Source of the DNA: an uncultured Bacillota bacterium
GTDB taxonomy: Bacteria; Bacillota; Clostridia; Christensenellales; Borkfalkiaceae
Length of the DNA stretch: 38,390 nucleotides
Assembly (NCBI GenBank): GCA_949287815.1
Contig: CASEHS010000012.1
Coordinates: 26,866 to 65,255 of the forward strand
Reading direction: 5' to 3'
A program made the position numbers and the translations under genes. Below, one piece after another: positions 7,652-31,256 of the stretch (its first letter is position 1; each line of letters starts with the position of its first letter). The notes below the pieces were generated by a model, which saw only the letters and a program-made list of their open reading frames with translations, was not told where the DNA came from and ran no database searches.

Positions 7652-7690
7652 GCCGCAGCGGAATTTTCCGCGGCGGCGTTTCTTTATAAA
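7652..7690 (+). terminator. Probable terminator of the feo operon
   Basis: Imperfect hairpin gccgcagcgg-aatttt-ccgcggcggc followed by TTTCTTT. Confidence 0.5.
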
Positions 7691-7755
7691 AATGCTTAAA
7701 AAAACTACGCCGCACTGTGTGAGAGGCAACAGTGAAAGAAGAAAACTTATATACG

Positions 7756-7783
7756 AAAAAAATCCTCACGCGTCGCGTGAGGA
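7756..7783 (-). terminator. Rho-independent terminator of rlmI-like gene
   Basis: On the - strand: cctcacgcg-ac-gcgtgagga followed by TTTTTTT. Confidence 0.75.
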
Positions 7784-7850
7784 GAATGAACGGGAAAAAT
7801 TTCCGATAATTTATATAAACAGAAAACTATAAGTAAAATAAATTTCAAGC

Positions 7851-9017
7851 TTAAAATATCTGCAAGAAAAACGCTTTGAGATAGTTTGTCTCTTCCGCGG
7901 TGAGCAGGGCGGGATGATCGGGAGCCTGAACGCGCACTTCCACGCATTTTACCCGTCTGCCGCTTGCCCTTGCGGCGTCTGCGAGCGTCTTTTCAAACAG
8001 CGGCAGCGTCATATAGTGGGAACAGGAGCAGGTGATCAGAAAACCGCCGCGTTTAACGAGTTTCATGGCGGTGAGGTTGATATCGCGGTAGCCGCGCGCG
8101 GCGTCCTTCACTTCTGCCGCGCTCTTGCAAAAAGCAGGGGGATCGAGGATCACGCAGTCAAATTCCGCCTTTTCCGCGCGGAATTTTCTTAAAAGTTCAA
8201 ACGCGTCTCCGCACAGAGTGTGAATATTTTTAAAACCGTTGAGCTCGGCGTTTTTCTTTACGTTTTCGAGGGCAAATTCGGAAATATCTACGGCGGTCAC
8301 TTCTTTTGCGCAAGTTGCGGCGTTGAGAGAAAAGCCGCCGCTGTTGCAGAAGCAGTCGAGGACTGACCCTTCCGCGCAATACCGCCTCGCCGCGAATCTG
8401 TTTTCTTTCTGATCGAGAAAATACCCCGTTTTCTGTCCGTTTTTCACGTCTACGGAGAGGAGAATGCCGTTTTCGCGAATGACGATCTCATCGGGTACTT
8501 CCCCGAAAAGCACTTTCGATTCAAGCGGAAGCCCTTCTTTTTTTCGTACCTGCACGTCGCCGCGCATATAGATCCCTTTGGGCGAAAACAACTCTTTCAG
8601 ACATTCGGCGATGAGTTCTTTACGCTCATCAATCCCGAAAGAAAGGCACTGCATCACGAGATAATCGCCGTATCTGTCCACGATCAGCGCGGGAAGATCG
8701 TCCGCTTCGGCAAAGACCATGCGGTAGCAATCGTCAAAAATAAGTTTTTTGCGCGCACGGTCGGCTTCTTCCAGCCTTTTAAGGTAGAAAGCCTTGTCGT
8801 CCACCTCGTCGCCGCGGATAAAAATGCGCACGAGGATCTTGGAAAGGTGGTTGATGTAACCTTTACCGATAAATCTTCCGTCGTTTGCGTACACTTCGGC
8901 AAGCGAGCCGTTTTTGTCTTTCCCTTCGATTTTCGCAACTTCGTTGGCATAAACCCAGCTGTGGCCGCCCGCGATGCGTTTTTCTTCGTTCTTTTTGAGA
9001 TAAATTTTGTAAGGCAT
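7851..9017 (-). CDS. rlmI: Class I SAM-dependent 23S rRNA m5C methyltransferase, RlmI-like (PUA + MTase)
   Basis: The six-frame ORF runs to 9161, but the RlmI-like start MPYKIYLKKNEEKRIAGGHSWVY (the GHPWVF-type PUA start) is the ATG at 9017. The 48 upstream codons are low-complexity. Catalytic Cys region TCSCSHYM. Confidence 0.78.
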   Translation of the reverse strand: MPYKIYLKKNEEKRIAGGHSWVYANEVAKIEGKDKNGSLAEVYANDGRFIGKGYINHLSKILVRIFIRGDEVDDKAFYLKRLEEADRARKKLIFDDCYRMVFAEADDLPALIVDRYGDYLVMQCLSFGIDERKELIAECLKELFSPKGIYMRGDVQVRKKEGLPLESKVLFGEVPDEIVIRENGILLSVDVKNGQKTGYFLDQKENRFAARRYCAEGSVLDCFCNSGGFSLNAATCAKEVTAVDISEFALENVKKNAELNGFKNIHTLCGDAFELLRKFRAEKAEFDCVILDPPAFCKSAAEVKDAARGYRDINLTAMKLVKRGGFLITCSCSHYMTLPLFEKTLADAARASGRRVKCVEVRVQAPDHPALLTAEETNYLKAFFLQIF

Positions 9018-9154
9018 AAATTTTTCCAAATACTGCGCCGAAAGGCGCGGTTGTTTTATTGAAAAGAAGTATATCAAAAACAGATAAAAAACGCAACTTT
9101 TCCGTGCGGCAGGGCAAGAAAAAGGGATGTGCCGCATTGCGGCGGGGGCAATGC

Positions 9155-9183
9155 TTGACAAAAATTATGCTTTGCGTTACAAT
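9155..9183 (+). promoter_or_regulatory. Consensus sigma-A promoter of dxs
   Basis: TTGACA (9155-9160), 17 nt, TACAAT (9178-9183). About 95-nt leader to the dxs ATG. Confidence 0.7.
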
Positions 9184-9280
9184 TAACAAAAAAAGAAGGA
9201 TTGCTTTTATCGGCGTTTGTTCGGTAAAAGGTATTATTCCGCTGCGCCCTGCGTAAAATAGAGAGCGCGGAGGGCAAAGC

Positions 9281-11089
9281 ATGCTGACGGACGAAATCAG
9301 AACATATAAGACAGGACAACTCAAACAACTTGCAAAAGAACTTCGGGAAGAGATCATCGGCGGCGTAAAGGAGAGCGGAGGGCATCTTTCTTCCAATCTC
9401 GGAACGGTGGAACTTACGCTTGCACTGCATAAAGTATTTTCATTTCCGCAGGATAAGTTGATTTTCGATGTAGGGCATCAGAGTTATACGCATAAACTGC
9501 TCACGGGCAGAACGCTTAAAAATCTTCGCCACGCTGGCGGAGCAAGCGGCTTTCCCGACCCTGAGGAGAGCGAATACGATACGTTCGCCTGCGGACACAG
9601 CGGAACGTCTGTCGCGCTCGGCATCGGACTTTGCAATGCGCGCGATCTTGCGGGGGGAAAGGAAAAAGTGATCGCCGTGATCGGAGACGCTTCGCTCGGC
9701 AACGGGCTTGCGCTCGAATCGATCTTTGCGGCGGACACGAAACCGAATAACTTTATCGTGATCCTCAACGATAACGGAATGTCTATCGATAAAAACAATT
9801 CCGCACTCTATAAATCCGTTTCTAAAATGACGGTAAAAAAGCGTTACCGCCGTTTTAATTCTTTTGTTTCGCGCGTATTTCGGGAAACGAGTGCGTTCGG
9901 CAGATATCTTCGGAAAATCAAATACAGTATCAAGGGCTGGCTCAATAAAAACGACTTTTTTGAGCGTTGCGGGTTCAAGTACATAGGCCCCGTGAACGGA
10001 CACGATCTTAACGAACTCGTCGCGGTTTTGTCGAATATCCGAGATCTTGAAGAACCTGTATTTTTGCATGCGATCACAAGAAAAGGGTACGGCTTCGATG
10101 CCGCGGAAGAGGATCCCGCCCGTTATCACGGAGTAGGCAAAAATTTTGCGGAAAGTGAAAATTCTTTTTCAAACGCGCTCGGAAGACATCTTTTGCTCCG
10201 CGCGGGCGAAGATAGAAACCTCGTGGCGGTAACTGCCGCCATGACGGACGGGGTAGGTCTTTCGGATTTTGCGAAAGCTTTTCCCGATCGGCTGTTCGAC
10301 GCGGGAATCTGCGAAAGTTATGCCGTGGCAATGGCTGCGGGTATGGCAAAGAGCGGTTTAAGGCCTGTTGTTTGTATCTATTCCACCTTTCTGCAACGCG
10401 CGTACGATCAGATCGTGCACGATGTGTGCCTGCAAAACCTGCCCGTAATTTTTTGTATCGATCGGGCGGGACTGGTCGGTTCGGACGGAAAAACGCACCA
10501 GGGGCTTATGGATATATCTTTTCTAAGATCCATTCCCAATCTTACTCTGTATGCGCCGAAAGACTGCGCAGAATTTGCGGATATTTTCGATTTTGCCTAT
10601 GCGGTGGGCAGACCTGCGGCGATCCGATACCCGAACGGCTATGCGCCTAATCTCGGTTCGGCGCGCAGGATAGAAACTTCGCTTTGGGAAATAATTTCGG
10701 ACGGCAACGGCGTTGCGGTGCTTGCCTGCGGTGCAAGGGCAGTAGCCCGCGCACTGGAAGCGAAAAAAATGGTCGCGCCGCTCAATCCGAAAATCATAAA
10801 TTGCAGAAGCATAGAGCCGTTGGACGAAAGAATTCTCGAAAGCGTTTCGGGAATGAAGATTTTAACTTTTGAAGAAGGTTATGCCTCGGGCGGGTTCGGC
10901 TCTGCGGTCGCCGAATATTATGCGAGAAACGCAAAGTCGGTGTTTTTGAAGATCATCGGCGCAGAGAGCGGGTTTGTGCCGCACGGAGCTTGCGAAGAGC
11001 AGGCGGCGTGGCTGAAAATTACGGCAAACGACCTCGCGTTGAAGATCCGCGCGGCTTTTTCGGACGGAAGAAACGGATATATTTTCTAA
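9281..11089 (+). CDS. dxs: 1-deoxy-D-xylulose-5-phosphate synthase
   Basis: 602 aa. TPP-binding GHSGTS...GDASLGNG and transketolase-like pyrimidine/C-terminal domains. Confidence 0.93.
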   Translation: MLTDEIRTYKTGQLKQLAKELREEIIGGVKESGGHLSSNLGTVELTLALHKVFSFPQDKLIFDVGHQSYTHKLLTGRTLKNLRHAGGASGFPDPEESEYDTFACGHSGTSVALGIGLCNARDLAGGKEKVIAVIGDASLGNGLALESIFAADTKPNNFIVILNDNGMSIDKNNSALYKSVSKMTVKKRYRRFNSFVSRVFRETSAFGRYLRKIKYSIKGWLNKNDFFERCGFKYIGPVNGHDLNELVAVLSNIRDLEEPVFLHAITRKGYGFDAAEEDPARYHGVGKNFAESENSFSNALGRHLLLRAGEDRNLVAVTAAMTDGVGLSDFAKAFPDRLFDAGICESYAVAMAAGMAKSGLRPVVCIYSTFLQRAYDQIVHDVCLQNLPVIFCIDRAGLVGSDGKTHQGLMDISFLRSIPNLTLYAPKDCAEFADIFDFAYAVGRPAAIRYPNGYAPNLGSARRIETSLWEIISDGNGVAVLACGARAVARALEAKKMVAPLNPKIINCRSIEPLDERILESVSGMKILTFEEGYASGGFGSAVAEYYARNAKSVFLKIIGAESGFVPHGACEEQAAWLKITANDLALKIRAAFSDGRNGYIF

Positions 11090-22157: not shown

Positions 22158-22286
22158 ATCGGCTTGCTTTGACGGTAAAGGATTAAAAAATAAGGGGCGT
22201 TACCCTTAAAGAATTTAAAAAACGGATCGGGAACGCTTTCCGTAAAGAAATTTAAGAAAAATCAAAAAATCGGTCAAACAGAAAAA

Positions 22287-22328
22287 ATCCGCAGTGCGAA
22301 GTTATTCGCACTGCGGATTTTGTTTTTT
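22287..22328. terminator. Bidirectional rho-independent terminator (fucosidase / trxB-like)
   Basis: atccgcagtgcgaa-gtta-ttcgcactgcggat, flanked by A-run upstream and T-run downstream. Confidence 0.8.
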
Positions 22329-22340
22329 GATTTTAATAAA

Positions 22341-23252
22341 TTACAGGCTTTCCAGATAGAGGGAAGCGTTGGTTGCGGCGATCGCGCCGTCGGAAACGGC
22401 GGTGGAAACCTGACGCACTGCTTTTGTGCGGCAATCTCCTGCCACGAACACGCCTTCCGTCTTTGTCTTGCAGTTTTCGTCCGCTATGATATAGCCCGCG
22501 CTGTCAAGATCGGCTACGTTTGAAAACGCCGCGTTGTCGGGAACCTGTCCGATCGCAACGAAAACCGCGGGGATCTCCTGCCTTAAAAGGTTGCCGTCTT
22601 TATCGGTGTATTCTATGGCTGTAAGTTCATCTTCGCCTATGAAATCGACCACGCTCGTGTTCGGGCGCACTTCGATATTCTCTTTTGTGCGAAGTGTCTT
22701 GATGAGGTTTGCGTCGCCGAAAAATTTATCGAAGAGGGTATACATATACACTTTTTTGCAATAACCCGAGAGGAGCAGGGCGTATTGAAGCGCCGAGTTC
22801 GCGTCGCCGATCACGGCAACTTCCTGCCCTTTGTAAGCGGGACCGTCGCATACGGCGCAGTAGTAAACGCCTTTTCCGACAAGGTCTTCGCGGTCGTGTT
22901 TGGTTTTGAGGTGTTTGTGCTTCACGCCCGCGGCAATGATCACGCTCTTTGCGCAGTATTCGCTGTATTCGGTCTTTACGACAAAAGTTTTGTCGGGCTG
23001 TTTTTCGATATGTACGGCTTTGTCGATCTCTATTTCCGCGCCGAGGTCGGAGATCTGTTCAAAAAGATTGTCCGCAAACGCCTCGCCGCTGATCTCCTTT
23101 ATCGAAGGAAAGTTTTCAAGGCGCGGAGAAGTTGCGATCTGACCGCCCAAGCTTTCCCCTTCGAGAACGAGTACTTTTTTTCCGTTTCTTAAAGCATAGA
23201 GTGCGGAGGTCATGCCTGCCGCACCCGCGCCGATCACTATGATGTCGTACAT
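22341..23252 (-). CDS. Thioredoxin-reductase-like flavoprotein lacking canonical NADPH-binding motifs (candidate ferredoxin-dependent FFTR-type)
   Basis: 303 aa. FAD GxGxxG (VIGAGAAG) and redox-active CAVCDG are present. The second dinucleotide site reads VIGDANSA instead of GGGNSA, and no HRRD motif follows. The ATG lies 1 nt after the nrdD stop. Confidence 0.8.
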   Translation of the reverse strand: MYDIIVIGAGAAGMTSALYALRNGKKVLVLEGESLGGQIATSPRLENFPSIKEISGEAFADNLFEQISDLGAEIEIDKAVHIEKQPDKTFVVKTEYSEYCAKSVIIAAGVKHKHLKTKHDREDLVGKGVYYCAVCDGPAYKGQEVAVIGDANSALQYALLLSGYCKKVYMYTLFDKFFGDANLIKTLRTKENIEVRPNTSVVDFIGEDELTAIEYTDKDGNLLRQEIPAVFVAIGQVPDNAAFSNVADLDSAGYIIADENCKTKTEGVFVAGDCRTKAVRQVSTAVSDGAIAATNASLYLESL

Positions 23253-23253
23253 A

Positions 23254-25620
23254 TCAGCCGATACTCTCTATATATTTTTTGATTTCACTGGGATTATCGT
23301 AAATTTTGAAGCTGTCGCCGTCGGGAACAAGCAACGTGGAAGCGTTTTTGATGCCGTACTTGATCGCAGTCTCTTTATCCTGTTCTGCGTTGATAACGGT
23401 GTATCTGATGCCCGCTTTATCGAGGAGCATTTTGCTCGTCTTGCACTTAGGGCAGTTATCTCTTGTAAAGAGGATAGGAGCAGTAAGAGAAGGAGCGGCG
23501 CAGCAAGCCTGTTCTGCTTTTTCCTGCTGAACTTTTTTGGTTTTCAGCGTGGAATGCTCGATATCGTAGACTTTTCTGTCCTTGAATTCCTGAGATTTTC
23601 CGTCGTTCCAGTTCTGAACGGGGCGGTAGTAACCGGTTATACGGCTGTATACTTCCGTTTTAGCTCCGCAGTGCGGGCAGGTGAACTGTTCGCCTGCAAG
23701 GTAACCGTGATCCTTACAGATGGAATAGGTCGGGGAAAGTGTGTAGTAGGGCAGTTTGTAGTTGTCTGCGATTTTCTTGACGAGAGCGGCAGCCGCTTTC
23801 CAGTCGGGCAGTTTTTCGCCGAGGAAGGCGTGGAATACCGTACCGGAAGTGTAGAGGGTCTGCAATTCGTCCTGAATATCGAGCGCGTCGAAGATGTCCT
23901 CGGTAAATCCGACGGGCAGATGCGAGCTGTTGGTGTAATAAGGCGTTCCGTTTTCGTTCGCCGTCTTGATATTGGGGAACTGTTTTTTATCGTGTTTTGC
24001 GAATCTGTATGCGGTGGATTCCGCGGGGGTCGCTTCGAGGTTGTAGAGGTCGCCGTATTCTTCCTGATAATCGGAGAGGCGTTCACGCATATGGTTGAGT
24101 ACGCGCTTTGTGAATTCCTGCGCTTCGGGGGAAGTCATATCCTTGCCGATCCAGCAGGCATTGAGTGCGGCTTCGTTCATACCGACAAGCCCGATCGTCG
24201 AGAAGTGGTTAGCGAATGTGCCGAGATAGCGTTTCGTGTACGGATACAGACCTTCGTCGAGGAGTTTGGTGATAACGGTACGCTTTGTTTTGAGCGAGCG
24301 CGCCGAAATATCCATGAGTTTATCCAGCCTTGACATAAACTCTTCTTCCGACTTGGAAAGATAAGCGATCCTCGGCATATTGATTGTCACAACGCCGACC
24401 GAACCGGTCGATTCGCCGCTTCCGAAGTATCCGCCCGATTTTTTGCGCAGTTCGCGAAGATCGAGACGCAGACGGCAGCACATACTGCGGATATCGCTCG
24501 GTTCCATATCCGAGTTGATGTAGTTGGAGAAATAAGGGGTGCCGTACTTGGAAGTCATTTCGAAGAGCAGGCGGTTGTTTTCGGTATCCGACCAGTCGAA
24601 ATTCTTCGTAATGGAATAGGTAGGGATAGGGTACTGGAACCCTCTGCCGTTGGCGTCGCCCTCGATCATCACTTCGATGAAGGCTTTGTTTACCATATCC
24701 ATTTCTTTCTGGCAGTCTTTATATTTGAAATCCTGGTTCTTTCCGCCGACGATCGCGGGCAGTTCCGCAAGATCGGCAGGTACAGTCCAGTCGAGGGTGA
24801 TATTCGAGAAAGGTGCCTGCGTACCCCAACGGCTGGGCGTATTTACGCCATAAATAAAGGATTCGATGCACTTTTTGACCTGTTCGTAAGAGAGGTTGTC
24901 CTTTTTCACGAACGGAGCGAGGTAAGTATCGAAAGAGGAGAACGCCTGAGCGCCTGCCCATTCGTTCTGCATAATGCCGAGGAAGTTGACCATCTGGTTG
25001 CAGAGAGTCGCGAGGTGGCTTGCGGGCGCGGAAGTGATTTTTCCGGGAATACCGCCGAGGCCTTCCTGAATGAGTTGTTTGAGCGACCAGCCTGCGCAGT
25101 AGCCTGTGAGCATGGAAAGATCGTGGATATGGATATCCGCGTTCTTGTGCGCGCGGGCGATTTCGTCGTCATAGATCTCGGACAGCCAGTAGTTCGCCGT
25201 GATCGCGCCGCTGTTGGAGAGGATAAGTCCGCCGACCGAATAGGTAACGGTGGAGTTTTCCTTTACGCGCCAGTCAGTCGCCTTAACGTAACTGTTCACG
25301 AGTTCTTTATAGTCGAGAATGGTCGACTTCATGTTACGCAGTTTTTCTCTCTGTCTGCGGTAGAGGATGTACGCCTTTGCGACGTCCGAATATCCCGCCT
25401 GGATAAGTACAGACTCCACGCTGTCCTGAATATCTTCCACAGCGATCTTGTCGTTTTGTATTTTGGATTCGAAATCAGCGGTCACTTTGAGTGCGAGCAT
25501 ATCCAGAATGCTCGGATGCGTCTGTTTTCCCTGTGCTTCAAACGCTTTGCCGATTGCCGCGGAAATTTTCTTGATATCAAATTCCGCTATTTTTCCGTCT
25601 CTTTTGATTACATTGAACAT
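23254..25620 (-). CDS. nrdD: Anaerobic ribonucleoside-triphosphate reductase NrdD (class III) with C-terminal glutaredoxin/NrdH-like domain
   Basis: ATG at 25620 follows GGAAAGGAG (the ORF opens further upstream at 25734). ATP-cone, Zn-ribbon CKDHGY...CPHCG and glycyl-radical motif RITGYY. A ~100-aa C-terminal extension follows, with linker ...EQACCAAPS... and a thioredoxin-fold segment ILFTRDNCPKCKTSKMLLDKAGIRYTVI. Confidence 0.92.
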   Translation of the reverse strand: MFNVIKRDGKIAEFDIKKISAAIGKAFEAQGKQTHPSILDMLALKVTADFESKIQNDKIAVEDIQDSVESVLIQAGYSDVAKAYILYRRQREKLRNMKSTILDYKELVNSYVKATDWRVKENSTVTYSVGGLILSNSGAITANYWLSEIYDDEIARAHKNADIHIHDLSMLTGYCAGWSLKQLIQEGLGGIPGKITSAPASHLATLCNQMVNFLGIMQNEWAGAQAFSSFDTYLAPFVKKDNLSYEQVKKCIESFIYGVNTPSRWGTQAPFSNITLDWTVPADLAELPAIVGGKNQDFKYKDCQKEMDMVNKAFIEVMIEGDANGRGFQYPIPTYSITKNFDWSDTENNRLLFEMTSKYGTPYFSNYINSDMEPSDIRSMCCRLRLDLRELRKKSGGYFGSGESTGSVGVVTINMPRIAYLSKSEEEFMSRLDKLMDISARSLKTKRTVITKLLDEGLYPYTKRYLGTFANHFSTIGLVGMNEAALNACWIGKDMTSPEAQEFTKRVLNHMRERLSDYQEEYGDLYNLEATPAESTAYRFAKHDKKQFPNIKTANENGTPYYTNSSHLPVGFTEDIFDALDIQDELQTLYTSGTVFHAFLGEKLPDWKAAAALVKKIADNYKLPYYTLSPTYSICKDHGYLAGEQFTCPHCGAKTEVYSRITGYYRPVQNWNDGKSQEFKDRKVYDIEHSTLKTKKVQQEKAEQACCAAPSLTAPILFTRDNCPKCKTSKMLLDKAGIRYTVINAEQDKETAIKYGIKNASTLLVPDGDSFKIYDNPSEIKKYIESIG

Positions 25621-25674
25621 AAACTTTTCTCCTTTCCCCCGTAGACTGCTTTTTTCGATCGGTGAAGTAGACCC

Positions 25675-25703
25675 ATTATAGCACCATAAAATGGCTTTGT
25701 CAA
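25675..25703 (-). promoter_or_regulatory. Consensus sigma-A promoter of nrdD
   Basis: On the - strand: TTGACA (complement of 25698-25703), 17 nt, TATAAT (complement of 25675-25680). Confidence 0.7.
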
Positions 25704-25746
25704 CATATTGTGGCAAAAAAATTCCGTGAAACACAATATATTGTGT
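25700..25746 (-). promoter_or_regulatory. Tandem NrdR boxes
   Basis: Box 2 ACACAATATATTGTGT (25731-25746) is a perfect 16-bp palindrome matching the NrdR-box consensus. Box 1 TCAACATATTGTGGCA (25700-25715) is degenerate and overlaps the -35. The centre-to-centre distance is 31 bp. Confidence 0.7.
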
Positions 25747-25788
25747 GTTTCACGGATAAAGATCAAAAATTATGAAATGATGAGAAAA

Positions 25789-26478
25789 TCAGCCGTTTTC
25801 GCCGCGGATGAGAACGGAGGGGACGAAAGGCTTTAAAATTCTTTTAAAAGTCTGCAATTCGTCGTCGGAAAAGGGGGTAAGCCCTTTTTGGAGAACGAAT
25901 TCGCTGTCCTTGAAGTTCTGTAAAAAATACCGCTTCGCGCCTTTGATGCGCTTTCCGATGTCGATAAAGTCTTCCGTTTTGTGGAATTCTTTGACTGCGG
26001 TGGTGCGAAATTCGTATTCGACTTTTCCCGAGAGTAGAAAGGCTATGCTCTCTTCGATCTTGGAAAAATCGCAGTGTACACCTGCCGTGCGCTCGTATTT
26101 TGCACGCGAATTTTTAATATCCATCGCGACAAAATCGACGAGTCCTTCTAAGACGAGGCTTTTGAGTTTTTCGGGGAAAGAGCCGTTCGTATCCAGTTTT
26201 ACCGCATAGCCGAGCGATTTTATTTTGCGGATAAACTCCTCAGTGCCTGCCTGTAAAAGCGGTTCGCCGCCCGAAACGCATACTCCGTCGAGTATGCCCT
26301 TGCGTTTTTCGAGGAAATCAAAAAATTCTTTTTCGGGGATCTCGCCTTCCGCAATGTCGAGAATCTCACCGTTCTGGCAGAACGGACAGCGGAAGTTGCA
26401 GCCCGAAAGGAATACCGTACAGGCAACTTTTCCCGGAAAATCGAGCAGGGTCGTTTTTTGCAGTCCTGAAATTTTCAT
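25789..26478 (-). CDS. nrdG: Anaerobic ribonucleotide reductase activating protein NrdG (radical SAM)
   Basis: ATG at 26478 follows GGAGG (the ORF opens at 26574). CNFRCPFCQN radical-SAM cluster motif, with a glycine-rich SGGEP loop downstream. 229 aa. Confidence 0.88.
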   Translation of the reverse strand: MKISGLQKTTLLDFPGKVACTVFLSGCNFRCPFCQNGEILDIAEGEIPEKEFFDFLEKRKGILDGVCVSGGEPLLQAGTEEFIRKIKSLGYAVKLDTNGSFPEKLKSLVLEGLVDFVAMDIKNSRAKYERTAGVHCDFSKIEESIAFLLSGKVEYEFRTTAVKEFHKTEDFIDIGKRIKGAKRYFLQNFKDSEFVLQKGLTPFSDDELQTFKRILKPFVPSVLIRGENG

Positions 26479-28204: not shown

Positions 28205-28321
28205 TCAGAAACAGTTTTTTAATTTCGGAAAATTGTTTAAAAATACAAATCAAATCTTAAAGTATAAATTTACTTTCATTTGTCAATAACTCTTGCACAA
28301 ACAAAAAGGCAGGAACATTTC

Positions 28322-28849
28322 ATGAAAAAAATCGGTATAGTTTTCGGGGTATTATTCATAATAATTCTGACGGTTATATTCACGGCGCAGGAAAAACCCG
28401 CGCCCGCATCGGAATATCTGAGGATGCACGTCCGCGCAAACTCCAATTCGGCGGAAGATCAGTCGGTAAAATACGAAGTCAAAGAAGCGATCGTAGAATT
28501 TCTGATCCCTTATGCGGCCGAGGCGGAAACAAGAGAGGAAGCAAAGCAAATTTTTGCGGAGCTTCTGCCCGGCATAGAACGGGTCGCGGACAAAGTTCTG
28601 GCGAAAAACGGATTTAATTACACTTCGCATGCCGAATGGCGGAAAGAAGAGTTTCCGACCAGGGTATACGACGGAGTGACTCTCGAAGCGGGCGTATATG
28701 ACGCACTGATCGTTGAACTCGGCACGGGCGAAGGCGATAACTGGTGGTGTGTGGTGTATCCGCCGCTGTGCTTTTCAGGCGCGGCGGGCAGCAACGTGCA
28801 GTACCGTTCCCGTATTCTGGAAATCATCAGAAATTTTTTCGGAGACTGA
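28322..28849 (+). CDS. spoIIR: Stage II sporulation protein R (signals pro-sigma-E processing)
   Basis: ATG at 28322 (the ORF opens at 28280). Signal/TM segment, then YLRMHVRANSNS...GDNWWCVVYPPLCF, which are SpoIIR hallmarks. Confidence 0.85.
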   Translation: MKKIGIVFGVLFIIILTVIFTAQEKPAPASEYLRMHVRANSNSAEDQSVKYEVKEAIVEFLIPYAAEAETREEAKQIFAELLPGIERVADKVLAKNGFNYTSHAEWRKEEFPTRVYDGVTLEAGVYDALIVELGTGEGDNWWCVVYPPLCFSGAAGSNVQYRSRILEIIRNFFGD

Positions 28850-28910: not shown

Positions 28911-29639
28911 ATGAAAAAACTCATCAGAACGAGTGCGCTCGTCCTTTCCCTTCTGGTCGTCGGCTGCGCGGGTGTACTTTTCACGGCGCGGAATCTTTCT
29001 TTTGGCAGAGAAGACATCGCCTGCGAAGCGGTAACGGAAGCGGCGGTATTGCGTCAGGGCAGCACGGGCAGCGAAGTAAAGACGGTCCAGTCCAAACTCA
29101 AACGTTGGGGATATTATTCGGGCGCGGTCGACGGGATCTACGGATCGCAGACAAAAAAGGCGGTAGAATATTTTCAGCGCAAGAACGGACTTAAAGTAGA
29201 CGGTATAGTAGGCGCAAAGACTTTTGCGGCACTGGGCATGTCCTCGTCTTCCTCATCTTCATCGTCTTCAAGCAGCAGTTCTTCGGCAAGCGGCGACGTT
29301 TACTTGCTTGCGCGCTGCATTTACGGAGAAGCTCGCGGTGAAAGTTATGTCGGACAGGTCGCCGTCGGCGCAGTAGTCTTGAACAGGGTAAAGAGCCCGT
29401 CCTTCCCGAACACCATATCGGGAGTCATTTATCAGAAGGGCGCGTTTACGGCGGTTTCGGACGGACAGATCAATCTTACGCCTAACCAGACGGCGATCAA
29501 TGCCGCAAAGGATGCTTTGAACGGTTGGGATCCTACGTACGGATGTCTGTACTATTACAATCCGGCAACGGCGACAAGTTCGTGGATATTCAGCCGCGAA
29601 ACGGTCGTTACGATCGGCAAACACGTCTTTGCGATTTAA
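28911..29639 (+). CDS. sleB: Spore cortex-lytic enzyme SleB-like (PG-binding domain plus Hydrolase_2), with poly-Ser linker
   Basis: 242 aa. Signal peptide, PG_binding_1 (GSEVKTVQSKLKRWGYYSGAVDGIYG), a run of 15-16 Ser (29241-29285), SleB catalytic domain (RCIYGEARGE...VVLNRV). Confidence 0.85.
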   Translation: MKKLIRTSALVLSLLVVGCAGVLFTARNLSFGREDIACEAVTEAAVLRQGSTGSEVKTVQSKLKRWGYYSGAVDGIYGSQTKKAVEYFQRKNGLKVDGIVGAKTFAALGMSSSSSSSSSSSSSSSASGDVYLLARCIYGEARGESYVGQVAVGAVVLNRVKSPSFPNTISGVIYQKGAFTAVSDGQINLTPNQTAINAAKDALNGWDPTYGCLYYYNPATATSSWIFSRETVVTIGKHVFAI

Positions 29640-29651
29640 GGAGGAAAGGGA

Positions 29652-31256
29652 ATGAGAGAGGAAGAAAAATTTTCTGAAGGTGCAGAAAAAGTAGAAAATC
29701 TCGCCGAAGAAAAGCGCGAAAAGGCGCGCCGCGCGGAAGAAGAAAAGGCGCAGGCGAGACTGGACGCGGCTTTGAAAAAAGAAGAAGAAAAAAAGCGCAA
29801 AGAAGAAATGAAGCGCGAGAAGAAAGAAGAAAAGGCGCGCAAGATCGCAGAGGATCGCGCACAGAAAGAACGCAGAAAAGAACACGCTGCGGAAGATAAG
29901 CGCAGACGTCGCGAAGATAAGGACAGAAAACAGCACGCGCCCGGTTTTGGAGGCTGGCTTACGGCTGTCATCACGCTGGGTGTTACCGTTCTTGCGCTGG
30001 GTGCTGTCGTTACGGTCGGATATTTCGATCTTACAGAGGCGAAATCGGGATTGTATAACGGTTATCAGAGCGCAGTGTGGGAGCTGAGCGAACTTACCGA
30101 AAATCTGAACGCGAATCTTTCCAAGGTGCGCGTTGCGACGGGAAATTATGAGATGCAGAAGATCCTCACGGATATTCTTGTCGAGAGCGAACTTGCGGAA
30201 AATTGTCTGCAATCTTTCCCTGTCGACGGACACGGAACGGAAAATCTGACGGCGTATATCAACCGCATGGCTGATTATTCGAGAAAACTTTTAAACCGTC
30301 TCGCTATGGGCGGAGAAATCACCGAAGAGGATGAACAGGTACTCGAATATATGTATTTTACCACTCAGAAGATCAATATCGCGGCAAGAGAGTTGTCCGG
30401 CGGTATGAAGGGTAAAAACTTAGACGAATTGCTGTCCGGAAAGGAATTTCGCGATAAATTCGACGAACTCGAACACAACACGATCGAAACGCCTAAAATG
30501 ATCTATGACGGGCCGTTTGCGGCAACGAGCAATGCCAAAGGTCTGAAAGCGGTAGCGGGCGAAAAGGAAGTTACGGAAAAGGACGCTGAAAAAATCGTCA
30601 AAGATCTTTTCATTGATTATAAGATAAAGGACATCAAAGCGGAAGGAAAGACAGAGCATAAAGATATGTGCGCGTATAACTTCACGTTCACGACCGAAGA
30701 GGGCGCATATTATTATGCGCAGCTCACCGAACGCGGCGGAAAACTGATGATGTTCGACGGATATGAAAAGAAAAAGCAAGACAATTTCGGGCAGGAAGAA
30801 TGTATCCGCAAAGCGGAAGAATTCTTGCACAAAGCGGGCTATGACGGCATGGAAGCAGTCTGGGCGAACGAGGGCGAGGAATTCTGCGATATCAACTTTG
30901 CGTATGAACAGGACGGAGTGATCTGTTATCCCGATCTCATTAAAGTAAAAGTCTGCAAAGAATGCGGCATGGTGACGGGTATGGAAGCGCACGCATATCT
31001 TACCAACCACACAGAGCGCGATCTGGGAACGCCTTCGGTATCCGAAAAGAAGATAGAGCGCGCGGCAGAGCGTAAAATGGAACTCCGAGGCGTACGCCTT
31101 GCGGTCATTCCCGTAGAAGAAAAGGAAACGCTCGCGTATGAGATCAACGGATTCCACGACGGAAACGAATATTATGCTTACCTCGATGCGAAAACGGGCA
31201 GAATGGTCGAATTGTTCACCGTTGTCGGCTCGGGTGCAGGCAGGGCGTTGATGTAA
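29652..31256 (+). CDS. ypeB: Germination protein YpeB-like (PepSY domains) with a ~95-aa K/E/R-rich N-terminal extension
   Basis: 534 aa. Lies 12 nt after sleB, the canonical sleB-ypeB pair. Charged N-terminus, one TM (GWLTAVITLGVTVLALGAVVTV), C-terminal PepSY-like repeats. Confidence 0.78.
   Translation: MREEEKFSEGAEKVENLAEEKREKARRAEEEKAQARLDAALKKEEEKKRKEEMKREKKEEKARKIAEDRAQKERRKEHAAEDKRRRREDKDRKQHAPGFGGWLTAVITLGVTVLALGAVVTVGYFDLTEAKSGLYNGYQSAVWELSELTENLNANLSKVRVATGNYEMQKILTDILVESELAENCLQSFPVDGHGTENLTAYINRMADYSRKLLNRLAMGGEITEEDEQVLEYMYFTTQKINIAARELSGGMKGKNLDELLSGKEFRDKFDELEHNTIETPKMIYDGPFAATSNAKGLKAVAGEKEVTEKDAEKIVKDLFIDYKIKDIKAEGKTEHKDMCAYNFTFTTEEGAYYYAQLTERGGKLMMFDGYEKKKQDNFGQEECIRKAEEFLHKAGYDGMEAVWANEGEEFCDINFAYEQDGVICYPDLIKVKVCKECGMVTGMEAHAYLTNHTERDLGTPSVSEKKIERAAERKMELRGVRLAVIPVEEKETLAYEINGFHDGNEYYAYLDAKTGRMVELFTVVGSGAGRALM

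Follow-up and report, generated by a model that had tools for sequence, protein, structure and literature searches.

A 38,390-nucleotide stretch of DNA from a gut Clostridia bacterium (hereafter, the window) encodes a class III ribonucleotide reductase (RNR) activase (nrdG), an oxygen-sensitive class III RNR whose C-terminus carries a glutaredoxin (Grx)-like domain (nrdD), and a thioredoxin reductase (TrxR)-like flavoprotein, all clustered on the minus strand. We observe a domain architecture, a set of active-site residues, an operon structure and a two-way gene linkage that together delineate a three-part, NrdR-regulated unit. At the level of sequence, the conservation of this unit across many species strongly supports a dedicated thiol relay. 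We consider it likely that the locus is a module serving anaerobic dNTP synthesis, self-contained and under NrdR control, that operates by a thiol relay. An earlier note on this DNA had proposed such a relay, in which electrons would pass from ferredoxin through the flavoprotein, the Grx-like domain and a cysteine pair in the linker to the NrdD active site. The dedicated, conserved three-part unit stands, but neither the linker step of that proposal nor its assignment of the flavoprotein to the ferredoxin-dependent FFTRs does.

The nrdD operon and its distribution

The nrdG gene (25789..26478, minus strand) encodes a radical SAM activase of 229 residues, counted from an inferred start at the ATG 3' of a GGAGG ribosome-binding site. 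The product scores 212.3 bits against the NrdG2 model TIGR02495 (cut-off 131) and also matches Radical_SAM and Fer4_12. The nrdD gene (23254..25620, minus strand) encodes 788 residues plus stop (NF006126, 1147.9 bits; PF13597, 650.8 bits). Its raw open reading frame spans 23254-25734, and we placed the true start at the ATG at 25620 because an AGGAG ribosome-binding site precedes this codon and the upstream GTG sits within an NrdR box. The flavoprotein gene (22341..23252, minus strand; 303 residues plus stop; PF07992, 141.5 bits) begins at 23252, one nucleotide past the nrdD stop codon (23254-23256).

The NrdR box (ACACAATATATTGTGT; 25731..25746, no strand assigned) shows 0 mismatches to the consensus, and a second, weaker box lies at 25698-25713, with a centre-to-centre distance of about 33 bp. 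The sigma-70 promoter of the nrdD-flavoprotein transcript (25675..25703, minus strand) consists of TTGACA, a 17-nt spacer and a TG-extended TATAAT, agrees with the consensus at 12 of 12 positions and overlaps the second NrdR half-site. An intrinsic terminator, a 17-bp stem followed by a T-run (22284..22321, minus strand), marks the operon end. With a common promoter and NrdR box, a 1-nt gap and a single terminator, nrdD and the flavoprotein gene are predicted to form one transcription unit. The same operon is present in eight independent assemblies, its C-terminal NrdD domain identical except for one substitution in one assembly, and is therefore not an assembly artefact. The sequence facts listed in the earlier note, including a TrxB-like gene one nucleotide after the nrdD stop, were all recovered on the minus strand at the coordinates it gives.

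Among related loci, 87 of 118 carry an NrdR box with at most two mismatches within 260 nt upstream of nrdD. The co-occurrence of the fusion with a trxB-like neighbour, which the earlier note had singled out for survey, holds in both directions. The module is widespread, recurring in at least 80 species. All of the best 80 species-level loci encode a fused nrdD, and in 73 of these 80 the next gene downstream, on the same strand, is TrxR-like. Conversely, a scan of metagenomes for the motifs of the type-A flavoprotein (defined below) returned 80 loci, and fused nrdD lies immediately upstream in 77/77 of those with enough upstream sequence to be informative, a count in which redundancy was retained. 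At five fused loci no TrxR-like gene occurs within 7 kb, and at one more the contig ends after 717 nt without one; some other reductase can therefore do the work. Besides nrdG, no other conserved gene was found in the neighbourhood of the module.

Architecture and active site of the fused NrdD

NrdD comprises an ATP-cone (residues 3-92; 25345..25614, minus strand; PF03477, 82.8 bits), a class III core with its glycyl-radical domain (NRDD domain, residues 121-685), a 29-residue linker and a 73-residue thioredoxin-fold domain bearing a CPKC motif. The glycyl radical site, Gly663 (23632..23634, minus strand), belongs to RITGYY (660-665), and SRITGYYRP is invariant in 62/62 fused homologues.

Alignment to the Thermotoga maritima and P. 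copri enzymes reveals the extra finger-loop cysteine and the glutamate of the thiol-dependent class, as the proposed relay would lead one to expect. The conserved reducing cysteine, Cys175 in strand beta-A (LTGYCAGWS; 25096..25098, minus strand), aligns with the GYC of T. maritima NrdD and is kept in 61 of the 62 fused homologues. The finger loop SMCCRLRL (379-386; 24463..24486, minus strand) contains the double-cysteine MCCR motif as defined in PMC9669993; it lines up with the CCR of the T. maritima enzyme, is likewise kept in 61/62, and reads MGCR in the formate-type P. copri NrdD. Glu529 (YNLEATPAES; 24034..24036, minus strand) aligns as the equivalent of T. maritima Glu495, is Glu in all 62 fused homologues and Leu in P. 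copri, and occupies the position of the residue proposed to donate a proton in thiol-dependent class III RNRs (PMC9669993). Across the 62 sequences SMCCRLRL, GYCAG and NLEATPAE are essentially invariant. The enzyme also retains the finger-loop methionine (Met380) of formate-dependent enzymes.

The extension beyond RITGYY is, as first read, a thioredoxin-fold domain. This Grx-like domain (716-788; 23257..23475, minus strand), with CPKC at 723-726 (nt 23443-23454), matches Glutaredoxin PF00462 over residues 717-752 at 27.1 bits, above the 22.9 cut-off; against the NrdH model it reaches 22-26 bits, under the cut-off of 85.75. Its AF2 model (pLDDT 86) has a beta-alpha-beta-alpha-beta-beta-alpha fold, for which Foldseek returns Trx, PDI, NrdH and Grx structures, and both cysteines and the proline of CPxC are invariant in 60 aligned sequences. 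Ser761 (nt 23338-23340) replaces the cis-proline found in relatives, and the absence of this residue, nearly universal in thioredoxin folds, could weaken the domain. The change is paired with one in the flavoprotein, which carries Ala at a position occupied by Phe, Met or Ile in 159 of 160 relatives and corresponding to Phe142 in the loop with which E. coli TrxR docks thioredoxin. Both changes were seen only in this species, and their pairing would fit a direct contact of the flavoprotein with the Grx-like domain.

The linker (687-715; 23476..23562, minus strand), of low pLDDT in the AF2 model, contains the vicinal C706-C707 (EQACCAAPS; nt 23500-23505) that had been assigned a step in the relay. 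Linkers in relatives span 30-57 residues and vary in cysteine content: of the 62 fused enzymes, 28 have CC or CxC, 11 a single Cys and 19 none. Not being conserved, the pair would be an optional extra and no obligatory step.

The flavoprotein and its NADPH site

The flavoprotein keeps the FAD site and carries the motifs GAGAAG (8-13) and CAVCDG (132-137, nt 22842-22859), and its AF2 model (pLDDT 86.2) adopts the low-Mr TrxR fold. Alignment to the NADPH-dependent M. mazei enzyme 4ZN0 and relatives bears out the reported loss of both NADPH motifs: GDANSA (149-154, nt 22791-22808) stands where NADPH enzymes have GGGNSA, and TLFDKFF (172-178, nt 22719-22739), aligned with HRRDHLK of 4ZN0, where they have HRRxxxR. 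Against TIGR01292 the protein scores 277.6 bits, under the 343.45 cut-off.

Its family divides into 34 type-A sequences, the window protein among them, in which both the glycine motif and the 2'-phosphate residues are replaced; 23 of type B, in which GGGNSA is intact and only the 2'-phosphate residues are lost; and 15 of type C, with a canonical NADPH site. TIGR01292 scores are 278-310 bits for type A, 290-318 for type B and 340-351 for type C. Type A keeps the first Gly and last Ala of GxGxxA; Ala takes the place of the second Gly in 24 of these 34 sequences, an acidic Asp beside the pyrophosphate position is invariant in the type-A alignment, and Thr, Leu, Phe and Phe stand where the four basic residues would be. 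Since the glycine motif and all four 2'-phosphate-binding basic residues are replaced, the type-A reductase most probably uses no NAD(P)H. The likeliest electron donor would be a low-potential carrier such as ferredoxin or flavodoxin; our neighbourhood survey of related loci found no conserved gene for either near the operon.

Close kinship with FFTRs was considered and rejected. The flavoprotein scores 174 bits against an NADPH enzyme and 97-116 bits against the C. acetobutylicum FFTRs, about the level that an ordinary NTR attains against the same FFTRs (104 bits), and the top 50 fold matches of its model include no FFTR. In a neighbour-joining tree, computed without bootstrap support and with few outgroups, it nests in an nrdD-linked clade whose basal members (type C) keep GGGxxA and HRRxxxR, which suggests that the motifs were lost independently of FFTRs. 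Among sister lineages with the same operon, the redoxin relay appears conserved and the electron source changed.

Known NAD(P)H-independent low-Mr TRs, namely clostridial FFTR (6GNA-6GND), cyanobacterial FFTR/DTR (5J60), DvTRi, TaTrxR and DFTR, share with the window flavoprotein the low-Mr TrxR fold, FAD, CxxC and the absence of the GxGxxA and HRRxxxR motifs. Unlike them, it stands nearer the NADPH enzymes (174 bits, against 98 bits to 5J60), exceeds the FFTR chains by about 21 residues over the aligned span, and lacks a C-terminal aromatic tail extension. Its replacement motifs are GD[AG]N[ST]A and TLFDKFF, in contrast to the TQ/NGK motif of DvTRi, and its proposed substrate is a domain of NrdD rather than a free thioredoxin.

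The proposed relay and related systems

The direction of electron flow and the donor are what we infer. NrdG would install the glycyl radical on NrdD. In each turnover, as has been proposed for thiol-dependent (NrdD2-type) class III enzymes, Cys175 and the finger-loop Cys381 or Cys382 would be oxidised to a disulfide, with Glu529 as proton donor. This disulfide would be re-reduced, in cis or across the dimer, by the CPKC dithiol of the Grx-like domain, which a flexible linker of about 30 residues ties to the glycyl-radical domain. The oxidised domain would then be re-reduced through the FAD and CAVCDG disulfide of the co-transcribed flavoprotein, a private reductase with one substrate.

It is possible, if rather improbable, that the relay runs in this way while the type-A flavoprotein still draws its electrons from a pyridine nucleotide via a non-canonical site, NADH being the most plausible source. 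C. pasteurianum Cp34/Cp9, reportedly a TrxR-like enzyme using NADH with a Grx-like partner, offers a precedent, and NADH-preferring low-Mr TRs without HRR are known. The whole second Rossmann domain is kept in a predicted fold like that of NADPH enzymes (TM about 0.8), two residues of GxGxxA remain, and type-B relatives have the glycine motif entire. Against NADH stand the type-A changes at the second Gly, beside the pyrophosphate position and at the four basic residues; in DvTRi, TaTrxR and FFTRs such losses accompany NAD(P)H independence.

We also think it unlikely that formate drives turnover in the manner of E. coli NrdD, via Met380 and Cys175, leaving the Grx-like domain and flavoprotein in auxiliary roles, where they could provide a back-up reductant for times of scarce formate or keep the active-site and zinc-site cysteines reduced after oxidative stress. 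MCCR enzymes do have the components for either reductant (Burnim et al., PMC9669993), and in one MAG (L077) the gene directly downstream of the fused nrdD encodes a formate-type MGCR NrdD, at a locus without the flavoprotein gene. However, neither Glu529 nor the extra Cys varies within the fused family, a dedicated reductase lies on the same NrdR-controlled transcript, and the nearly exclusive two-way linkage exceeds the conservation expected of a back-up. That linkage, together with the shared promoter, NrdR box and terminator, makes it scarcely credible that the flavoprotein is a housekeeping thioredoxin reductase lying beside nrdD by chance, even though the scores of type-C members reach or approach the TrxB equivalog threshold (343 bits). 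No thioredoxin gene lies beside the flavoprotein, whereas Monoglobus has an ordinary trxA-trxB pair.

Read as a dedicated thiol relay, the module is, in the literature searched, an uncharacterised variant of redoxin-dependent class III RNR systems; we found there no experimental study of the three-part arrangement, as the first reading had supposed. In the archaeon Methanosarcina barkeri, the NrdD3 gene cluster reportedly supplies a Grx-like redoxin and a pyridine-nucleotide-independent reductase, the redoxin being a separate protein and the reductase, it is said, an iron-sulfur enzyme of the FTR type rather than a flavoprotein. The logic is that of the relay originally proposed here, but M. 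barkeri NrdD3 differs from the window NrdD in lacking the Glu and in having a QCCR loop. Wei et al. (2015, Biochemistry) couple NrdD3 with an NrdH-like redoxin and ferredoxin:disulfide reductase.

A supplementary table of PMC6187632 lists a single Glutaredoxin:NrdD fusion, from Lachnospiraceae bacterium TWA4 (subclass NrdDd), which is not examined further there. The thioredoxin-dependent NrdD2 enzymes of Neisseria bacilliformis and T. maritima (Wei et al. 2014, PNAS, as described in PMC4493059 and PMC9669993) likewise combine a glycyl-radical NrdD with an extra finger-loop Cys and an active-site Glu, and their turnover disulfide is re-reduced by a thioredoxin-type protein. Those systems draw on a general redoxin and a general reductase, both separately encoded and NADPH-linked, and their finger loop, SCCR, has no Met. 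The window NrdD has an MCCR loop and carries its redoxin as a C-terminal fusion, and its dedicated reductase is encoded in the operon. A Grx-type domain shown to act as reductant is also fused to an RNR polypeptide in the class I enzyme of Facklamia ignava (Grx::ATP-cone::NrdB; PMC6187632), although that fusion is N-terminal, on the radical-generating subunit, of the glutathione-dependent GrxC type and without a linked reductase gene. The NrdH-redoxin of class Ib RNR, a small Grx-like protein whose gene accompanies those of the RNR, similarly receives electrons via a TrxR-type flavoenzyme and not glutathione (PMC6187632), but is free-standing and relies on the housekeeping NADPH-dependent TrxR.

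The fused NrdD and its redoxin domain

NrdD passes the class III RNR models NF006126 (1147.9 bits, cut-off 548), TIGR02487 (540.9 bits, cut-off 326) and PF13597 (650.8 bits), and its Pfam layout comprises an ATP-cone at residues 3-92, an NRDD domain at 121-685 (650.8 bits) and a Glutaredoxin domain at 717-752 (27.1 bits). The glycyl-radical motif RITGYY occupies residues 660-665, preceded by a Cys-rich zinc site (C635/C648/C651), and nrdG lies directly upstream of the gene. The active site was read against T. maritima NrdD (PDB 4COI/4U3E), with P. copri NrdD, reported to be formate-dependent, as the formate-type comparison. Cys175 (GYCAG) aligns with the beta-A cysteine of the T. maritima enzyme, SMCCRL with its CCR finger-loop motif, where the third cysteine is kept in 61 of 62 relatives, and Glu529 (NLEATPAE) with chain residue 495, kept in all 62. 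At the finger-loop and Glu529 positions, the P. copri enzyme reads MGCR and Leu in the same alignment output. In the definitions of Burnim et al. (PMC9669993), the double-cysteine motif corresponds to T. maritima residues 328-331, and residue 495 is the Glu that donates the proton. The active site is therefore of the double-Cys-plus-Glu kind, and the thiol-type site predicted in an earlier note is borne out by the extra finger-loop cysteine and Glu529.

According to Burnim et al. (PMC9669993), the finger-loop Met is retained in 83% of double-Cys enzymes, for which either reductant is chemically possible, and its absence marks the 'thioredoxin only' subclades. The window NrdD lacks this mark: Met380 is present, and the loop reads MCCR. 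Because Met380 is kept, formate would also be a chemically possible reductant for this enzyme. At locus L077, which comes from an uncultured Clostridia MAG (E07__bin8), the fused MCCR NrdD-Grx gene is followed directly by a gene (7690-9849) for another NrdD, 720 aa long, unfused and with the formate-type MGCR loop, and no TrxR-like gene is present; this organism thus carries in tandem two class III enzymes that differ in reductant type.

Downstream of RITGYY, a 29-residue linker (687-715) holding C706-C707 leads into a 73-residue Grx-like domain with CPKC at 723-726. The domain passes the Pfam Glutaredoxin cut-off of 22.9 both within full-length NrdD (27.1 bits) and as the tail alone (32.3 bits). 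An AF2 model of the C-terminal extension, built on 60 sequences, has a mean pLDDT of 86, with low confidence in the linker, and displays a beta-alpha-beta-alpha-beta-beta-alpha thioredoxin fold with CPKC as the CxxC at the N-terminus of helix 1. Foldseek matches it to thioredoxins, PDI domains, NrdH (4FIW, 4HS1) and glutaredoxins (probability 1.0, TM 0.55-0.69). Profile, model and fold matches agree on the thioredoxin-fold extension claimed in the earlier note. Both cysteines and the proline of CPxC are invariant in the 60 aligned sequences, and the active site reads CPNC in 134 of 157 loci. None of the NrdH, YruB, mycoredoxin and Grx3 models is passed (21-29 bits against cut-offs of 85-90; among the NCBIfam subfamily models, NrdH scores 22.7-26.3 bits with a cut-off of 85.75 and YruB 24.6-27.9 with a cut-off of 88.55), so the domain is a thioredoxin-fold redoxin of no named subfamily. 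A library-wide search with the 78-aa Grx-like domain returns mostly contig-edge NrdD fragments and some free-standing proteins of about 74 aa, closest to YruB yet below the YruB cut-off; it says little about the origin of the domain. One further protein, P0386, is a multi-redoxin giant of 2774 aa with five stretches resembling the domain.

The earlier note had also made the vicinal linker cysteines (23500-23505) a step in electron transfer. Across 62 full-length fused enzymes, linkers are 30-57 residues long and enriched in cysteine (4.2% versus 1.8% for the whole protein). A CC or CxC occurs in only 28 of the 62 (~45%); 11 linkers have one cysteine and 19 (31%) have none, with no clear tie to reductase type. 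This poor conservation rules out the CC pair as an obligatory shuttle. The recurrence of CC or CxC nonetheless suggests some use, and these cysteines could act in auxiliary shuttling, bind a metal or link subunits through a disulfide. CC or CxC linkers are found, for example, in the window and at loci L029, L062, L079 and L080; some linkers hold three or four cysteines (CACTCGC, CCCE).

A flavoprotein without the NADPH motifs

The AF2 model of the neighboring flavoprotein (pLDDT 86.2) adopts the low-Mr TrxR fold, and its best 50 PDB fold matches are all NADPH-type TrxRs or AhpF (TM ~0.8, 30-34% identity). The FAD motif GAGAAG and the redox motif CAVCDG are intact. Where the NADPH-dependent M. 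mazei enzyme (4ZN0) contains GGGNSA and HRRDHLK, the flavoprotein reads GDANSA and TLFDKFF, so that both NADPH motifs are absent at the aligned positions, just as first noticed. Its score to the TrxB equivalog TIGR01292, 277.6 bits, falls below the cut-off of 343.45.

The loss of these motifs had led to the suggestion of kinship with FFTRs, the ferredoxin-dependent flavin thioredoxin reductases. In its motifs the flavoprotein fits the FFTR-type pattern as used in PMC10880999; judged by phmmer and Foldseek scores, it does not cluster with characterized FFTRs. Its scores to the FFTRs of C. acetobutylicum are 116 (6GNC), 97 (6GNA) and 92 bits (6GND), and to the Gloeobacter FFTR 98 bits; its scores to NADPH enzymes are higher, 174 bits for 4ZN0 and 134-164 for the others. 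The best 50 Foldseek matches include no FFTR. As a control, an ordinary NADPH-type TrxR (NTR), that of Monoglobus, reaches 104 bits against 6GNA. Since the FFTR scores are about those of an ordinary NTR, the flavoprotein has no special FFTR affinity, and the proposed kinship is not supported. The Monoglobus trxA-trxB pair, considered as an FFTR candidate itself, was rejected because its protein is a canonical NTR; it was used as an outgroup.

Operon structure, distribution and reductase types

All three genes lie on the minus strand. For the gene of the 229-aa NrdG activase (25789-26478; TIGR02495, 212 bits), the most probable start is the ATG at 26478, behind a GGAGG site. Between nrdG and nrdD sits a perfect NrdR box (ACACAATATATTGTGT, 25731-25746), which forms with a weaker box about 33 bp away a tandem pair spanning 25698-25746. 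The pair overlaps the -35 element of the nrdD promoter, a minus-strand sigma-70 promoter (TTGACA-17-TATAAT with a TG extension, 25703-25675) matching 12 of 12 consensus positions. The annotated nrdD start is a GTG inside the NrdR box, giving an 826-aa ORF. Given this position of the GTG and the AGGAG ribosome-binding site ahead of the ATG at 25620, we place nrdD at 23254-25620, encoding 788 aa. An exact look-up of this 788-aa protein finds no record because gene callers took the GTG; the same look-up matched the flavoprotein. The flavoprotein gene (22341-23252) starts 1 nt past the nrdD stop codon and is followed by a minus-strand terminator with a 17-bp stem (22284-22321), beyond which lies a convergent GH29 fucosidase gene. 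Promoter, NrdR box, 1-nt gap and terminator thus define nrdD and the flavoprotein gene as one NrdR-controlled transcript, with a promoter separate from that of nrdG. Rfam returned no match in the window. Of 118 loci, 87 have an NrdR box with two mismatches or fewer in the 260 nt upstream of nrdD. Many of the related loci have nrdG in another place, either some 2 kb upstream or on the opposite strand downstream.

A search with the last 158 residues of NrdD retrieved 1398 proteins. Query coverage among the best 120 ranges from 76 to 100% and is at least 97% for almost all of them; PF13597 and PF00462 are found together in most. Each of the best 80 loci, drawn from species-representative genomes, covers the region from the glycyl-radical domain through the linker to the Grx-like domain. 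Among them the closest relatives are Christensenellaceae and Candidatus Borkfalkia; further hosts include Oscillospiraceae, Acutalibacteraceae, Faecousia, Lachnospiraceae (including the cultured Butyrivibrio sp. INlla16), uncultured Bacilli and Erysipelotrichaceae. In 73 of these 80 loci nrdD is followed immediately, on its own strand, by a TrxR-like gene, in most cases after 0-130 nt. Five of the remaining seven have none within 7 kb, one (L056) has none in its remaining 717 nt, and one (L044) retains only 213 nt of contig. Conversely, a scan of metagenomes with [IV]GD[AG]N[TS]A[LA]Q, the motif of the flavoproteins that have lost both NADPH motifs (type A), yielded 80 loci, counted without de-replication; a fused nrdD lies immediately upstream in all 77 with enough upstream sequence. 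ORF clustering of 161 loci finds nrdD, the flavoprotein gene (150 loci) and nrdG (86 loci) conserved and nothing else; no conserved ferredoxin, flavodoxin or thioredoxin neighbor emerges from these loci. Five MAGs with this Firmicutes-type operon (L015, L028, L038, L041 and L046) are labeled Bacteroidaceae, Bacteroidales, Faecalibacterium prausnitzii or Coriobacteriia, labels that probably reflect binning or labeling errors rather than horizontal transfer.

The nrdD-linked flavoproteins comprise three types. Type A, with GD[AG]N[ST]A and [TA]LFD[KR]FF, includes 34 sequences, the window's among them; type B (23 sequences) combines GGGNSA with Q[ND]L..[FL]T; and type C (15 sequences) has the canonical GGGxxA and HRRxxxR. 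TIGR01292 scores are 340-351 bits for type C, 290-318 for type B and 278-310 for type A. In type A, Asp150 is invariant, the second Gly of the motif is Ala in 24 of 34 sequences, and the four basic residues are replaced by Thr, Leu, Phe and Phe; because of these substitutions, type A is very probably unable to bind NAD(P)H. In a neighbor-joining tree with five NADPH-enzyme outgroups, including the Monoglobus NTR, the nrdD-linked flavoproteins group together, with a basal, paraphyletic type C and one nested clade each for types A and B. The tree carries no bootstrap support, and the order of types is therefore a lead rather than proof. On the simplest reading, an NADPH-dependent reductase dedicated to NrdD-Grx would have come first and lost its nucleotide site later. 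That loss would have arisen independently of the losses in DvTRi, TaTrxR, DFTR and the FFTRs of clostridia and cyanobacteria, each of these being a case of its own.

A candidate electron relay to NrdD

Under anaerobic conditions, DNA precursors come mainly from class III RNRs. The best-supported model for this operon is a relay, in which we infer the flow of electrons and their donor from the observed architecture, residues, co-transcription and linkage. Electrons would pass from the donor to the FAD of the flavoprotein and its CAVCDG disulfide, from there to CPKC of the tethered Grx-like domain, and then to the Cys175-Cys381/382 disulfide of NrdD for NTP reduction. In these fermenters ferredoxin or flavodoxin is the obvious candidate donor, with nothing in the sequence pointing to either. 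We also considered whether the relay might reduce the iron-sulfur cluster of NrdG and rejected this, since a dithiol relay is insufficiently reducing for that step.

A change peculiar to this species fits direct contact between the Grx-like domain and the flavoprotein, although as one paired event it is anecdotal. The window domain reads A-S-T (Ser761, 23338-23340) where the other loci examined keep the cis-Pro as A-P-[ST], and Ser761 is reproduced in eight independent assemblies. The window flavoprotein is the only one of 160 with CDG-P-A-Y (Ala139, 22836-22838); the others have Phe, rarely Met or Ile. By alignment, we take this position to be that of Phe142 in the thioredoxin-docking loop of E. 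coli TrxR. Ser761 and Ala139 occur together only in this species among 161 operons and may represent compensatory co-variation of the two partners.

In M. barkeri, a redoxin reportedly works with a ferredoxin-dependent iron-sulfur reductase. That system resembles the window operon in having an operon-encoded redoxin for a class III RNR together with a reductase; it differs in that redoxin and NrdD are separate proteins and the reductase is an iron-sulfur, ferredoxin-dependent enzyme. The literature searched contains no description of a fused NrdD-Grx with a linked flavoprotein, in keeping with the earlier note's claim that the arrangement was uncharacterized; a single Glutaredoxin:NrdD fusion (Lachnospiraceae bacterium TWA4) is listed, without analysis, in a supplementary table of Rozman Grinberg et al. 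(PMC6187632). The arrangement is thus new and widespread, yet with the M. barkeri precedent it falls within a known category. Class III reductants as currently summarized are formate (NrdD1), thioredoxin (NrdD2) and Grx-like NrdH (NrdD3).

Burnim et al. (PMC9669993) raised the reductant of the majority MCCR-type enzymes as a question, to which this operon offers a genetic answer for many gut anaerobes, among them Christensenellales, Oscillospirales, Lachnospiraceae and uncultured Bacilli. With the redoxin attached to NrdD and the reductase co-transcribed under NrdR, the question becomes testable with three purified proteins. We further advance, tentatively and as a plausible rather than a probable reading, that type A arose independently as one more lineage of low-Mr TrxRs that do without pyridine nucleotides, that it has a single substrate, the NrdD-fused redoxin, and that it wires anaerobic dNTP synthesis to the reduced ferredoxin/flavodoxin pool in many gut Clostridia and Bacilli. 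The same tentative reading would make the series from C through B to A, in one operon context, a stepwise record of a TrxR changing its donor, and the abundant MCCR-plus-Glu class III RNRs thiol-dependent in vivo. Reductases for one substrate with canonical, part-lost and fully lost NADPH sites are useful for studies of donor switching and for identifying where other NAD(P)H-independent TRs obtain their electrons. In current annotation the fused enzyme is a plain 'ribonucleoside triphosphate reductase' and the reductase, like its close relatives at NCBI, an 'FAD-dependent oxidoreductase'; annotated genomes give no sign that the two are linked.

Near the operon, three ORFs judged by eye resemble sporulation and germination genes: a SpoIIR-like ORF (28280-28849), a SleB-like cell-wall hydrolase with a poly-Ser linker (28911-29639) and a YpeB-like ORF (29652-31256). 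If these readings are correct, the organism would be a spore-former, which fits a Christensenellales/Borkfalkia relative.
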